DNA from: Candidatus Nomurabacteria bacterium
GTDB lineage: Bacteria > Patescibacteriota > WWE3 > UBA101185 > UBA10185
Length of the DNA stretch: 64,000 nucleotides
Direction of reading: 5' to 3'
NCBI GenBank assembly: GCA_020631855.1
Contig: JACKGU010000001.1
Location: 295,601-359,600, forward strand
A model generated the notes under the pieces. It saw nothing but the letters and a program-made list of their open reading frames with translations. It was not told where the DNA came from and did not search any database. Below, piece after piece: positions 20,863 to 25,873 of the stretch. Every line of letters starts with the position of its first letter. Position 1 is the first letter of the stretch. Made by a program: the position numbers and the translations under genes.

Positions 20863-22164
20863 TCACTGAGGTCTGGGCTTATCTCTCAAAGAAATTGGTC
20901 TAATAACCTCCAAGCCATTCATGTAGGGCTTTAAAACTTCCGGTATTAAAACAGAGCCGTCTGCTTGCTGGTAATTTTCCAATATAGCGATAATTGTTCT
21001 TGACGTTGCAACTGCAGTTCCGTTTAACATGTGAACATACTCAGTGCCGCCTGTGTCTAATTTATACTTAATATTTAAATTTCTCGCTTGGTAATCTGTA
21101 CAATTTGAAGTGGATGTCACTTCCCCATAGTCTTTTCTACCAGGCATCCAAGCCTCTATATCATATTTTCTTGCTGCCATCGCACCTAAGTCTCCGGTGC
21201 ATTGCTTTAGAACCCTATAAGAAATGCCCAGGCCTTGGTAAATTGATTCTTCCATCTCCAGCAGATAATCATGCATCTGCATTGATTCTTCAGGCTTACA
21301 ATAAATAAACATTTCCACTTTTGTAAATTGGTGAACTCTATATAGCCCTTTTGAATACTTTCCATAAGCGCCGGCCTCTTTTCTAAAACAGTGAGAATAG
21401 CCAACATATTTTAAGGGTAAATTTTCCAGAAGTAGAACCTCGTCAGCATGCTTACCGGCAAGAGTTACTTCAGCAGTTGCAATTAAACCCAAATCCTCAC
21501 CTTCGATTGTATAAGTTTGGGCCTCATCTCCTCTAGGGGCATAGCCTGTTCCAAGATAATAACGGGACTTTGCTAAATCAGGCGTCAAGGTCGGAGTAAA
21601 ACCAGCTTTACTAAGCTTTTCAAACGCGTATTGCACAAGCGCAAGCTCCATTAAGACACCGGCACCATATAGAAAATAAAATTGAGAACCTGAAACTTTG
21701 GCACCGTCTTCAAAACTTATAATTCCGAGGGATTCTCCCAATTCAACGTGATCTTTTGGTTCAAAATCAAGCTTTGGAATGTCACCCACATGCTTTAATA
21801 TTTCATTTCCTGATTCATCTCTTCCTACAGGAACGTCTGCCGAAGGTATATTTGGAACAGCCATAACCATAGCGTCCAATTCGTTTTTTAAAACCAACAG
21901 TTTATCTTCCAACCCCTTTAGTTCCTCTTTCGTGTCACTAGCTTGTGTGATTAATTTTTCACGAGCATCGCCAGATACTTTTGAAATGTCTTGAGAGAGC
22001 TCGTTGCGAATTGCTCTAAGCTCTTCTACTTTCTTAAGTAAATTTCTATACTCAACGTCAACTTGTAGAAGCCTATCTATGTCCACAACGCCATTCATGT
22101 TTTTGTCTTCTATTGCTTTTTTTACAACCTCAGGGTTTTCTCTTATTATTTTTATGTCCAACAT
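20863..22164 (-). CDS. serS: Seryl-tRNA synthetase
   Basis: 433 aa; N-terminal coiled coil, class II motifs. Confidence 0.95.
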   Translation of the reverse strand: MLDIKIIRENPEVVKKAIEDKNMNGVVDIDRLLQVDVEYRNLLKKVEELRAIRNELSQDISKVSGDAREKLITQASDTKEELKGLEDKLLVLKNELDAMVMAVPNIPSADVPVGRDESGNEILKHVGDIPKLDFEPKDHVELGESLGIISFEDGAKVSGSQFYFLYGAGVLMELALVQYAFEKLSKAGFTPTLTPDLAKSRYYLGTGYAPRGDEAQTYTIEGEDLGLIATAEVTLAGKHADEVLLLENLPLKYVGYSHCFRKEAGAYGKYSKGLYRVHQFTKVEMFIYCKPEESMQMHDYLLEMEESIYQGLGISYRVLKQCTGDLGAMAARKYDIEAWMPGRKDYGEVTSTSNCTDYQARNLNIKYKLDTGGTEYVHMLNGTAVATSRTIIAILENYQQADGSVLIPEVLKPYMNGLEVIRPISLRDKPRPQ

Positions 22165-22578
22165 AATTTATTCCTAAAATATAAATAACTACTAACCGGG
22201 GATTGAGAATAAAAAACCCCCTGGTTTTACCCAAGAGGCTCAATACTAATGTATTGAAGGTGCCAGCCTTCTTCATACTTATTAACAGCTATAACGGGCA
22301 TTCCCGACTTGGCATTTCCTCCAAGCAGCTCCGTGATTGGAAAATTCACATCAAAGCTTTTTTAGTTTTTTTATACAAACAAACTCAATTATTTGTTAGT
22401 CTGTGTTCGTAAATATAACAATTAAGTGGTCGAGATTCAACCAGTAAATACTTTTTTTAGCAACGATTGATTGCTTTACAGGTCTGCAATCAACACTAAG
22501 AAATGATCCGGACGAAAAACCTGTTCAAACGGTAAGAGCTGGGGAAGAAGCGCAGAAACTTAAATGTTTAATCCCTAT
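22165..22578 (-). promoter_or_regulatory. Long (about 410 nt) structured 5' leader of serS; possible T-box-like attenuator, or an independent ncRNA
   Basis: Non-coding; intrinsic terminator at 22211-22237 (minus) about 47 nt before serS AUG, followed by UAGGA SD; minus-strand motif GAAGG-CUGGCACC-UUC (22271->22256) resembles T-box bulge UGGNACC with N=C matching tRNA-Ser G73. Confidence 0.3.
22211..22237 (-). terminator. Intrinsic terminator/attenuator hairpin upstream of serS (CUCUUGG-guaaaa-CCAGGGGG + UUUUUU, two G-U pairs)
   Basis: Read on minus strand: GAGCCTCTTGGGTAAAACCAGGGGGTTTTTTATTC. Confidence 0.45.
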
Positions 22579-24696
22579 CTATTTGGCTTGATTTTTGTAA
22601 ACATTGATCAAAAACTCTACATGTGCATCAAAACCCTCACCTAGTTGTTCAACACCATATAAAATCTCTTCACGATCAATTTTAGCCGCAAAAGCCCTAT
22701 CTTTAAATTTCTTCTTTACTGACGATACTTTCATGCCGTCGTAACCTTCGGGGCGCATCAATGCGTACGCATATAGAAATCCGGCCATCTCATCCACGGC
22801 AATAAGCGCAGAGGCCAGCCTGGTCTGAGGTTTTACATTGGTTCTCATGTGAGCATGAGCTGCAACTGCATGAATTAAACTCTCAGGATAGTTTCTCTCT
22901 TTAAACCATTCTAATGATTTTGCAGGATGCTCATCAGGGTATTCAAAATAATCAAGGTCATGTAATAAACCTGTGATATACCAGAGTTCGCGATCTTCAT
23001 TGAATTTTTCAGCATATGCTTCAAGACCGCGGGCGATCATAAGAGCATGCTGTATTTGATAGCTGTCCTTGACATGGTCCCGTAAAAGCGCCTCCGCCTC
23101 CTTTCTAGAAGGTAGAAATCCCTCGGAGCTAATGTATAAACTCTCGTTTAAATCAGTTTTACTTAGAGAGTCTTCTACTAGAGGATCGCTCTTGGATAAC
23201 CCGTAGATTTCAGCGTTTGCATCGTCGTAAACATGCTTCAATTGAGGAAATGGAACTCCTTCCCTTGCTGTAACATCCTCTAAAAACCAAAAAACTCTTT
23301 CTGAATGACCATAACCAAATGTCGGCGGCATGCCGTATTCAAGCATTTCAACATAATCAATATCGAGCCACTGCGCTTCCGAATCACCGGAATCTCTCAT
23401 TGACTGCTGTTCCGAAAATCGTTCAAACTGATCCAAGCCACTATTTATTTCCGACCAGCCATTTCCGAGTTCGGAGCCGGCAATAATTGGCTGGAAACGC
23501 TCTGTTATTCTGGTATCTTTTGGGTTCGCCTTTGCTAACGGCGACAAATACTTAGGGTGATTAATTAAAAAGGCAGGCCCCCCAATAGTTCTACGTATTT
23601 CTTTCCAAAGAGCGTCCACTAATCGTGGCCGATTCTCTGTCTCTGCCTTTATTCCGGCTTTTTCGCAAGCTAGCTTTAAATCTTCAATACTTGAATTGTG
23701 TACGTCTACTCCATATCTCTGCTTCATGATGTCAGAGAAATCAATCCTTTCCCACTCTTTTTTGGAGAAATCAACTTCAAAACCCCTAATACTGAACTTC
23801 TTCTTATCTCCGTAAAGAGATTCAATCACGTAATTAAAAAGGTCTTGAATAAAATCCATACCTGATTGCCAATCAGCGTAAGCCCAATAAACCTCCATCG
23901 CCATGTGTTCGGGAAGATGCTCGTCGGATAAACCCTCATTTCTGAATCTTGGGCCTATTTCATAAACTTTTTCATAGCCCCCTCCAATTAATCTTTTCAA
24001 AAAAAGTTCATGGGAAATTCTAAGATAAAGAGTCTCATCGATGGAGTCCATATGAGTCACAAAAGGATTCGCGTCTGCCCCTCCGGGCACTGCTTCTAAA
24101 ACAGGAATATTAATCTCATAGAAACCCCTTTTTTCAAAAAACTCGCGATGAGCAGCCCAAAACTTAGAACGTCTAATGTATCTATCACGAACATCATCAT
24201 TTATCCTTGTATCTAGATATCTTTTACGCATTCTGGTCTCTCTGTCTTTAAGCCCATCGTGCTTGTCGGGCAATGGTCTAAGGGATTTGGCCAATATTCT
24301 TATGCTGTGGGGCTCTATAGACTGCTCGCCGCTATTTGTTATTACTAAAGCTCCCTTGCACTCTATATAATCTCCAATATCTAATAAATCCAGCTCAGAG
24401 TAGGATATTTCACTATTTTTGTGTTCAACTTTTTCAAGATTTTGTTCCTTAATATATACCTGAATTGTGCCTGAAAAATCTTTTATATCAAAAAATGTCA
24501 GCTTTCCATGTCTTCTCAACGACATGATCCAACCGGCTAAAATTACTTCCTTTCCCCCAAGTTTGCCAAAGCTGCTTATAACTTCAGAGATTAGGTGGGT
24601 CCTAAAAGACGTTGCCGGATAAGGATCAACGCCTAGATCTTGAAGATTTTTAAGTTTTTGTAATCTTACATCCCTTAGCTCTTTTAAAGTGGCCAT
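22579..24696 (-). CDS. lysS: Lysyl-tRNA synthetase (class II) fused to a C-terminal HD-domain (YqeK-like) phosphohydrolase, about 705 aa from MATLKEL
   Basis: Core LysRS (FRNEGLSDEHLPEHMAMEVYWAYADW; ...PPTFGYGHSERVFWFL...VPFPQLKH) ends about residue 510; extra about 215 aa has H...HD...H..H..D pattern (IQHALMIARG...GLLHDLDY...AVAAHAH...AVDEMAGF). Confidence 0.9.
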   Translation of the reverse strand: MATLKELRDVRLQKLKNLQDLGVDPYPATSFRTHLISEVISSFGKLGGKEVILAGWIMSLRRHGKLTFFDIKDFSGTIQVYIKEQNLEKVEHKNSEISYSELDLLDIGDYIECKGALVITNSGEQSIEPHSIRILAKSLRPLPDKHDGLKDRETRMRKRYLDTRINDDVRDRYIRRSKFWAAHREFFEKRGFYEINIPVLEAVPGGADANPFVTHMDSIDETLYLRISHELFLKRLIGGGYEKVYEIGPRFRNEGLSDEHLPEHMAMEVYWAYADWQSGMDFIQDLFNYVIESLYGDKKKFSIRGFEVDFSKKEWERIDFSDIMKQRYGVDVHNSSIEDLKLACEKAGIKAETENRPRLVDALWKEIRRTIGGPAFLINHPKYLSPLAKANPKDTRITERFQPIIAGSELGNGWSEINSGLDQFERFSEQQSMRDSGDSEAQWLDIDYVEMLEYGMPPTFGYGHSERVFWFLEDVTAREGVPFPQLKHVYDDANAEIYGLSKSDPLVEDSLSKTDLNESLYISSEGFLPSRKEAEALLRDHVKDSYQIQHALMIARGLEAYAEKFNEDRELWYITGLLHDLDYFEYPDEHPAKSLEWFKERNYPESLIHAVAAHAHMRTNVKPQTRLASALIAVDEMAGFLYAYALMRPEGYDGMKVSSVKKKFKDRAFAAKIDREEILYGVEQLGEGFDAHVEFLINVYKNQAK

Positions 24697-24907
24697 TATT
24701 TTATTTCCTAAACTGAATACGTACTTCGCAATTATAACAGAAAAGGGGCAGGTACAAAGCACCCAAAAATAGTGCTAAAACATTTTTACGGCCTAAATTT
24801 TTTTATTTGCTTTTATATTGCTAACCCGAACAAAATTCTTTTAGTACATGGCCTAACCTGCTTATACTAGCCACAAACAACAAAGAACTGTAAAATATCT
24901 GCAGAGT

Positions 24908-25873
24908 ATGAAAAAAATAACTGAAGCTACGATCGCTCAAGGCACTAGGGTTTTTGTGAGTACAGATATAGATGTACCTATAGATAATGGGCATATTAGA
25001 AATACTTTTAGACTCGACCGTGGCTTAGAAACTCTTAAGTACATAGTAGATAAAGGAGCAATCCCAGTAATTGGGGGCCATATAAAAAATCCTCAAGGAA
25101 AATACGATCCCCAGCTTAGTACAGCACCTCTTAAAAAGTATTATAATGAAAAATTAGGGGAGGGTTCTTACGAACTATTAGAAAATCTGCGTTTTGACAT
25201 TAGAGAAGATCAGAATGAGGATACCTACGCACAGGAACTGGCAAATAAAACAGAGGTCTTTGTAAACGAGAATTTTGCAACCTCACATCGAACAAATGCT
25301 TCTTTAGTTGCTATTACTAAATACTTACCTTCATTCGCGGGACTTAATTTGAGCAGAGAAATCGAAGCTTTGGATAAAATACTTATCGACTACAAAAAGC
25401 CTTTTACTGCAGTTATTGGCGGAGCGAAAGTTGAAAGCAAGGCACCTGTTATTGATTCGCTTTGCAACATAGCTGACAATATCCTGCTTGGTGGGAAAAT
25501 AGGCTTAAACTATTCTACGGATAATGCTAGGGTGAGCTCTCCGGCCGACTACGCAGACGGTAATCAAGATATCGGCCCGAAAACAATCCTAAACTATACA
25601 GGATACATACTGTCAGCCCAAACACTTTTATGGGCCGGGCCTATGGGAGCTTATGAAAAAGACGAATTCTGTATTGGTACAAATCTAATCGCAGATGCGA
25701 TAGTGGAAGCAACAAAAGGCGGCGCTTATAGCATAATAGGAGGCGGAGATACGATTACAGCTTATAGCAAGAACCACGCATTGGGAGAAGTAAGTTTTGT
25801 TTCAACAGGAGGAGGGGCCATGCTGACATATCTGGCGCATAAGAATATGCCCGGCATTGAGGCTTTAGGATAA
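24908..25873 (+). CDS. pgk: Phosphoglycerate kinase (short, 321 aa)
   Basis: LENLRF, NENFATSHRTNASL, GGGAMLTYL motifs. Confidence 0.88.
   Translation: MKKITEATIAQGTRVFVSTDIDVPIDNGHIRNTFRLDRGLETLKYIVDKGAIPVIGGHIKNPQGKYDPQLSTAPLKKYYNEKLGEGSYELLENLRFDIREDQNEDTYAQELANKTEVFVNENFATSHRTNASLVAITKYLPSFAGLNLSREIEALDKILIDYKKPFTAVIGGAKVESKAPVIDSLCNIADNILLGGKIGLNYSTDNARVSSPADYADGNQDIGPKTILNYTGYILSAQTLLWAGPMGAYEKDEFCIGTNLIADAIVEATKGGAYSIIGGGDTITAYSKNHALGEVSFVSTGGGAMLTYLAHKNMPGIEALG

Follow-up and report, generated by a model that had tools for sequence, protein, structure and literature searches.

Analysis of a 64-kb stretch of DNA (the window, whose positions are used throughout) indicated that the minus-strand region 22363->22211, located upstream of serS, is very probably a T-box riboswitch specific for serine. 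It would regulate serS through transcription attenuation, with tRNA-Ser-dependent transcription antitermination as its most likely mode of action. We regard it as a T-box riboswitch of new architecture: it appears to lack Stem III and the platform of Stem I, and keeps the features that define tRNA sensing. Judged from sequence, this reduced design recurs in other ultra-small Patescibacteria (CPR). In a preliminary description of this DNA, serS had been suggested to lie under the control of a T-box-like attenuator, which agrees with what we observed when the parts of the element were identified and compared, namely a full-length match to the Rfam T-box model RF00230, the codon UCC followed by A in a gene-matched position, a UGGC bulge, overlapping alternative folds and a covarying family.

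The non-coding interval between lysS and serS (22165-22578) is exactly 414 nt long, and the ORF coordinates bear out the minus-strand gap from the lysS stop to the serS start reported previously. The entire gap was found to be 100% identical in three further public assemblies of the same organism, and an assembly artefact is therefore excluded. A coding role for the gap was rejected, as the stop-free stretches are short on both strands and are broken or frame-shifted among relatives. The interval had been described as a structured leader of about 410 nt; structure was indeed found, but its extent was overstated, the structured element being limited to the 153 nt of 22363->22211. Folding of 22578->22400 showed no excess structure in comparison with shuffled sequences (z = 0.04). 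The spacer that follows lysS was searched for a lysS terminator and none was convincing; transcripts reading through from lysS may therefore also enter the switch. No synthetase genes other than lysS and serS were found in the 64-kb window, and examination of the region upstream of lysS revealed no T-box features. The features of the locus are listed in Table 1.

Table 1. Features of the lysS-serS locus, in the direction of transcription (positions in the window)
Feature	Position	Strand	Basis and remarks
lysS	22579-24762	minus	ORF; LysRS fused to C-terminal HD/HDIG domain
Spacer after lysS, outside riboswitch	22441-22578	minus	Non-significant fold; absent from relatives with other genes upstream of serS
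Promoter-like site TTGAAT-17-TATATT with upstream TG	22412-22440	minus	Consensus scan; 9/12 matches, extended -10
Stem I, ultrashort	22327-22358	minus	Base helix AGC/GCU, K-turn, helix UGUGA/UCACG, 9-nt loop AUUUUCCAA
Stem I terminal loop AUUUUCCAA	22345-22337	minus	Loop above 5-bp helix
Specifier Ser codon UCC and conserved A	22341-22339, A at 22338	minus	Matches serS; family comparison
Stem II GCUUGG-AGGAAAUG-CCAAGU	22307-22326	minus	Purine-rich loop; aligned to RF00230 Stem II
Stem IIA CGGG-AAUG-CCCG and F-box tail (CCCGUUA)	22292-22306	minus	Aligned to RF00230 IIA/F-box
Linker: AAGUA (22280-22276), then UG, AA, GA	22270-22291	minus	RF00230 Stem III positions are gaps
Antiterminator, A1 AGGC/GCCU, bulge, A2; AGGC[UGGCACCU]...GCCU	22236-22269	minus	RF00230 alignment; covariation
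Antiterminator bulge UGGCACCU	22265-22258	minus	UGGCACC at 22265-22259
Helix A2 UCAAUAC-AUUA-GUAUUGA	22257-22240	minus	RF00230 alignment
Intrinsic terminator GAGCCUCUUGG-GUAAAA-CCAGGGGGUU and U6	22241-22211	minus	Scan and MFE fold; U6 is 22216-22211
Shine-Dalgarno-like UAGGA	22172-22176	minus	Sequence; 7 nt 5′ of serS AUG
serS, regulated gene	20863-22164	minus	Pfam Seryl_tRNA_N and tRNA-synt_2b; TIGR00414 497 bits

When 22100-22650 was searched with RF00230 in E-value mode, a full-length match (model positions 1-219) was obtained to 22363->22233 on the minus strand, with E = 8e-7. The K-turn, Stem II, IIA/F-box, the AAGUA segment, the UGGCACC bulge and helix A2 are all retained in the alignment; 8 nt stand in place of the 75 distal Stem I positions, and Stem III is wholly deleted. 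The covariance-model hit that had been suggested as a check was thus found, but its score of 37.5 bits compares with an Rfam gathering score of 93 bits, and no Rfam family matched at gathering thresholds anywhere in the 64-kb window. Three T-boxes with a long Stem I (L097, L109 and L151) were likewise below the RF00230 threshold, at 64-84 bits, and other short leaders scored 38-48 bits or were unreported at E <= 0.01. The E-value of the T-box match, together with conservation and covariation in other genomes, indicates more than a chance resemblance. The remaining matches were attributed to chance: MicF over the whole window in E-value mode had E = 1, and the non-T-box matches in the gap, among them folP, mir-7616 and SAM-II, all had E = 0.1-5.

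The K-turn at the base of Stem I consists of a UUU bulge and tandem GA/GA (read GC-UUU-GA...GA-GC); at the same position, relatives have GA/UA, AA/AA, a plain 3-nt bulge or a three-way junction. Stem I then closes in its 9-nt loop after 5 bp, and the distal platform formed by the AG bulge and the distal loop is absent. A search for Stem I hallmarks, as had been advised, therefore recovered the K-turn and the Ser codon, but neither the AG bulge nor a specifier internal loop. Since class II T-boxes also lack the distal platform, it does not define the T-box family as a whole. The Stem II hairpin also occurs in canonical T-boxes with a long Stem I. The putative pairing of the IIB pseudoknot was seen in 71.7% of cells, only marginally more than the 61.8% in shuffles, with a register that varies between subgroups. 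Where Stem III would be expected, the purine flanks AAGUA and AA are kept in the window, with 2 nt (UG) in place of the hairpin; in a hand alignment of 15 leaders the Stem III hairpin is missing from most members. An AU hairpin in the linker, formed by UUAUAGCU with AGUAUGA, was considered and rejected, as the U-to-C change in relatives with UUACAGC is uncompensated.

In the antiterminator, the segment GAAGG-CUGGCACC-UUC pointed out earlier is present at about 22271->22255 and includes the UGGCACC motif. It had also been cautioned that the AGGG/GCG helices of the canonical T-box were not obvious; this is explained by the use of AGGC/GCCU (A1) and UCAAUAC/GUAUUGA (A2) instead. The canonical G-U wobble that closes the base of helix A2 shows no conservation: the window has U-A (perhaps U-G) here, and other leaders have G-C. 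The UGGN bulge has C or U as N in all 15 leaders, with the variants UGGCAAC in L084, L086 and L088 and UGGUAUC in L136. Bacterial tRNA-Ser, tRNA-Asp and tRNA-Trp carry G73, which suits C or U at this position. No tRNA genes were found in the window, nor were cognate tRNA genes found across all the related loci, where only tRNA-Met and tRNA-Ile were detected, both in L098.

The family set comprised 15 distinct leaders, all on AT-rich contigs; those that can be placed are from Patescibacteria, and the placement of several metagenome contigs relied on AT content, gene order and protein similarity only. The SerS of the window is 100% identical to a protein that NCBI assigns to 'Candidatus Nomurabacteria bacterium' (Patescibacteria/CPR). 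Protein look-up with SerS identified relatives of 67-78% identity that have the leader, which is located directly 5′ of serS in L081, L082, L083 and L088. No leader was found at L001, or at L087 within the DNA examined. A DNA pattern made from Stem II, IIA and F-box only, GGAAATGCN{4,6}CGGGN{3,5}GCCCGTTA, was used to scan metagenome contigs and matched 66 loci, most of which are T-box leaders; the segment is thereby shown to be a true component of T-boxes. The majority of these loci are GC-rich, with a canonical, long Stem I; the short-Stem-I type accounts for eight, which are AT-rich. By NCBIfam, the gene downstream is serS in L102, L110 and L114 (loop codon UCC + A), the Asp-tRNA ligase gene in L111, L136, L137 and L144 (GAC + A), and trpS in L098 (UGG + A).

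Over the whole set, the loop codon is UCC + A in front of serS (10 leaders), GAC + A in front of aspS (4) and UGG + A in front of trpS (1), and in all 15 leaders the sole loop frame that always precedes the A encodes the amino acid of the downstream gene. The aspS version was also found beyond these 15, in two contigs with an AspRS named by NCBI as candidate division WWE3 (L158 and L159). The nearest named relatives of the L137 AspRS are from candidate division WWE3, Patescibacteria group and Parcubacteria, and the sources name the SerS and AspRS hosts as Patescibacteria, Nomurabacteria or WWE3. The gene order of L102 (serS, a methyltransferase-like gene, bacA) is the same as that of the window, with SerS only 48% identical. 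The genes that precede the leader in the relatives bear no relation to lysS, and the element therefore belongs to serS. A scan of genome contigs based on SerS returned mostly distant phyla; among the matches listed, the Patescibacteria loci had no T-box upstream of serS, and a canonical T-box was located 5′ of serS in Chloroflexi loci only.

The 15 leaders were aligned by hand and fitted to the proposed structure. In the 5′ domain, 99.6% of cells were paired and 17 of the 19 pairs were changed on both sides; the covariation score was 0.744 against a shuffled mean of 0.21, was reached by none of 500 shuffles, and fell to 0.10 or less when the partners were slid. The antiterminator gave similar figures, with 97.1% of cells paired, double changes at 10/14 pairs and a score of 0.556 (shuffled mean 0.134; 0/500 shuffles reaching it; partners slid, <= 0.084). 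The percentages of paired cells are inflated, because the hand alignment was fitted to the structure. The number of distinct Watson-Crick types per position (up to five) is independent of this fitting. Among the 15 leaders, double changes were seen at 6/6 helix pairs of Stem I, at 6/6 pairs of Stem II (100% paired) and at three of the four pairs of Stem IIA, for example CGUA/UACG in L086. The Stem I helix alone occurs as UGUGA/UCACG, UGCAAA/UUUGCG, GGUGAG/CUCACU, CCAAGC/GCUUGG and GGAAG/CUUCC.

A covariance model of our own (R1) was built from five of the leaders. With R1 the window scored 146 bits and the metagenome-derived short leaders 67-131 bits; L083, L084/L085, L086 and L088 scored 31-64 bits and canonical T-boxes up to 53 bits, so that the two groups overlap at the low end. 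A search of the window with R1, filters off, revealed no second T-box copy, the next match having only 9.6 bits.

The start of the leader is probably near 22405, as predicted from the promoter-like site at 22440-22412; in most family members, a TTGACA-type promoter is located 10-20 nt 5′ of the T-box. The element would thus have a promoter of its own and not depend on lysS read-through alone, a point that, like the ultrashort Stem I and the missing Stem III, went unseen in the preliminary description. At the other end, the intrinsic terminator with U6 noticed previously was recovered as the hairpin GAGCCUCUUGG-GUAAAA-CCAGGGGGUUU (22241->22214) in the MFE fold of the full leader, which is the terminator form and contains Stem I, Stem II and IIA as given in Table 1. 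The 5′ arm of this hairpin (22241-22231) takes in the A1 3′ strand GCCU (22239-22236) as well as the final 2 nt of helix A2. The fold energy is -9.0 kcal/mol for the antiterminator and -21.2 kcal/mol for the distal region with the terminator and the A2 hairpin. A terminator by itself proves little, as five terminator-like sites were observed by the scan in 5 kb against 3.8 expected. A GC-rich hairpin with a run of 5-8 U that overlaps the A1 3′ strand is found in 14 of the 15 leaders, the sole exception being L083, which has no clear terminator. The distance from the end of the U run to the serS AUG (22164) is 46 nt, in accord with the approximately 47 nt estimated before, and the UAGGA Shine-Dalgarno sequence mentioned there is present as well; it lies about 35 nt past the hairpin and takes part in neither of the alternative folds. 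The hairpin with its U run, and the position of UAGGA outside both folds, point to transcription attenuation and not to sequestration of the Shine-Dalgarno sequence.

These same observations bear on the alternative that the T-box acts on translation, or on both levels, with the hairpin as a sequestrator or RNA-stability element as in actinobacterial ileS. The T-boxes with an ultrashort Stem I that have been described are all translational (10.1101/2023.02.28.530422; PMC7583486), and the lack of an obvious terminator in L083 would fit this alternative. However, a Shine-Dalgarno sequence that pairs with neither fold could hardly be the target, and the GC-rich hairpins with U runs in nearly all leaders would not be needed by a sequestrator. 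We therefore consider translational control improbable.

Under the preferred reading of a transcriptional switch, the following course of events is predicted; that the RNA binds tRNA and senses its charging, where the transcript starts, and that it terminates in vivo are all inferred here from the structure and its relatives. Transcription would begin at the promoter-like site (probable), and the nascent RNA would form a decoding module consisting of the K-turn, the 5-bp Stem I that displays UCC + A, Stem II, and Stem IIA with the F-box. The anticodon of tRNA-Ser(GGA), presumably GGA, would pair with UCC. An uncharged tRNA would pair through its 3′ end G73-CCA, G73 again being presumed, with UGGC in the antiterminator bulge and hold A1 (AGGC/GCCU) and A2 together, so that the terminator would be blocked and the polymerase could enter serS. 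With a charged tRNA, or with none, GAGCCUCUUGG would pair with CCAGGGGGUU and transcription would stop at U6, ahead of the AUG. Because there is no distal Stem I, no contact with the tRNA elbow would be possible. By analogy with actinobacterial ileS T-boxes, affinity may come from Stem II and Stem IIA/B docked via the K-turn (PMC7583486; PMC11297988).

The element could also be a decaying T-box remnant that no longer responds to tRNA and serves as a constitutive partial terminator only. The loss of two parts reported to be essential (PMC7583486) and the low Rfam score would be consistent with decay. In a relic, however, one would not expect compensatory changes in every helix and a codon that still matches the gene, and the reduced design has been kept among SerS proteins of 44-78% identity and across three gene families; such a remnant is thus even less probable than translational control. 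Least probable of all, and in our view very unlikely, is that there is no cis-regulator and that the region represents an independent sRNA of about 190 nt (22440 to 22211), or a lysS terminator with a UGGCACC that occurs by chance: the region is indeed flanked by a promoter-like site and a terminator and gives weak matches to the Rfam families Ref1C (26 bits) and trpB motif (24 bits), but these matches align mainly to the terminator hairpin with E 0.1-0.5 and are regarded as chance, the element tracks serS, aspS or trpS whatever the gene upstream and never lysS alone, and the codon-gene matching and full T-box architecture would be left unexplained. An independent sRNA or other riboregulator had been kept as a fallback in the preliminary description, and the comparative data contradict it.

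As a T-box, the element shares much with canonical class I members (RF00230; tyrS of B. subtilis; serS of Firmicutes and Chloroflexi): the K-turn, a purine after the specifier, Stem II together with IIA and the F-box, with a segment GGAAAUGC...CGGG...GCCCGUUA common to long-Stem-I T-boxes, the AAGUA..AA purines, the UGGN bulge, an antiterminator that competes with a terminator carrying a U run so that only one of them can form, and a synthetase gene downstream. It differs from them in a 5-bp Stem I without specifier internal loop, AG bulge or distal loop, in the lack of Stem III, in AGGC/GCCU in place of AGGG/CCCU, in having no conserved G-U at the base of A2, and in its length of only about 153 nt including the terminator.

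The short Stem I, the specifier in its loop, the K-turn and the retention of Stem II and Stem IIA, with a putative IIB, resemble the class II ileS T-boxes of M. tuberculosis, M. smegmatis and Nocardia farcinica, in which Stem II and Stem IIA/B offset the missing elbow contact. However, class II T-boxes sequester the Shine-Dalgarno sequence, whereas an intrinsic terminator is present here; they have been reported for ileS only (10.1101/2023.02.28.530422), in contrast to serS, aspS and trpS for the leaders described here; they keep Stem III, which most of the present leaders lack; and their hosts are Actinobacteria, not Patescibacteria. For TBDB, class II members were sought in Actinobacteria only, and among those class-I hits whose Stem I is truncated (PMC7778990). 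Among well-studied transcriptional T-boxes the smallest is glyQS, also a natural minimal design in which a whole domain has been dropped and control is by termination. The reduction went the opposite way, as glyQS is without Stem II and IIA/B but has retained Stem III and a long Stem I with its elbow platform.

Whether the leaders on serS, aspS and trpS constitute an undescribed 'mini' T-box class across Patescibacteria (CPR), acting co-transcriptionally and free of both platform and Stem III, we judge to be evenly balanced. The literature was searched for work linking T-boxes to Patescibacteria, to CPR or to individual CPR phyla by name, and none was found, although coverage was incomplete and an earlier description is possible. 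Transcriptional T-boxes are said to need the Stem I distal platform, and Stem III, which reads the tRNA 3′ end, has been called 'indispensable for function' (PMC7583486). A class that has a terminator and lacks both would be a direct test of these two rules; if the proposal is true, the elbow contact and Stem III would be dispensable for transcriptional tRNA sensing, and these leaders would be the first native RNA switches known in Patescibacteria. The presence of such leaders on synthetase genes suggests that tRNA charging is monitored even in the tiny genomes of Patescibacteria. The sensor of about 130 nt could offer structural studies and engineering a compact transcription switch that responds to tRNA. 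Riboswitches were named as candidate expression-control tools for Patescibacteria in a 2024 perspective (PMC11665869), and the mini T-box may serve as one. For annotation, it is relevant that standard Rfam thresholds overlook these leaders.

The leader is not always adjacent to the synthetase gene. In L084/L085 and L086, which were found via the SerS protein, it heads a three-gene operon with serS as the last gene, and the first gene of this operon encodes a histidine-phosphatase-family protein closest to the phosphoserine phosphatase PspA.

The T-box bulge and the Stem I base both varied within the short class, the group of leaders with an ultrashort Stem I. The 'ACC' portion of the bulge is described as structurally conserved; in several members it was replaced by AAC, as in the serS-linked leaders of loci L084, L086 and L088 (UGGCAAC), or by AUC, as in the aspS-linked leader of L136 (UGGUAUC). 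In the aspS leader of L111, the 3′ strand of the K-turn was replaced by an extra hairpin, UACC-GAAA-GGUA, so that the base of Stem I becomes a three-way junction, and in other members the tandem GA pairs were changed to AA/AA, GA/UA or a plain 3-nt bulge. Stem III can also be absent outside this class: the T-box in L119, which is GC-rich and carries a long Stem I of the normal kind, has none (GAGUG-AA-ACAUC-AGGG-UGGGACC).

Three ordinary long-Stem-I T-boxes from metagenomes (L097, L109 and L151) scored 64-84 bits and thus missed the T-box gathering score of 93 bits in Rfam 15. Threshold-based annotation probably under-reports T-boxes of uncultured lineages.

Rfam RF02978 (folP RNA) aligned weakly to part of the window element (19.4 bits, E = 0.16). 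In the consensus of this orphan motif, the 5′ hairpin, CauGGAGGAAAUGCCauG, is followed by a GC hairpin, and the 5′ hairpin is nearly identical to Stem II plus IIA of the window T-box. A T-box decoding domain might be a source or relative of the folP motif.

The Ser T-box of L084 and L086 does not lead serS by itself; it lies ahead of an operon in which a histidine-phosphatase-family gene comes first, a SET-domain gene or small ORF second and serS last. In NCBIfam, the phosphatase matched phosphoserine phosphatase PspA best, with a score of 159 bits that did not reach the cut-off for that family. The LysRS-HD/HDIG fusion encoded by lysS of the window was also present in L081 and L155-L157, and an HD-domain gene was found close to serS in L087 and L001, immediately upstream of it in the latter.

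Coordinates of the features described in the window and in comparison loci
Feature	Location	Strand
Ser T-box ahead of operon	L084 142-300	
Ser T-box ahead of operon	L086 234-400	
aspS leader with extra hairpin	L111 4652-4805	-
Long-Stem-I T-box without Stem III	L119 416-545	
folP RNA (RF02978) alignment	window 22307-22327	-
lysS, LysRS with C-terminal HD/HDIG phosphohydrolase domain, 727 aa	window 22579-24762	-
Phosphoglycerate kinase ORF	window 24908-25873	+

The phosphoglycerate kinase ORF of the window is listed at only 321 aa, with its Pfam match split into three pieces, and may represent a miscalled start or an unusually short gene.
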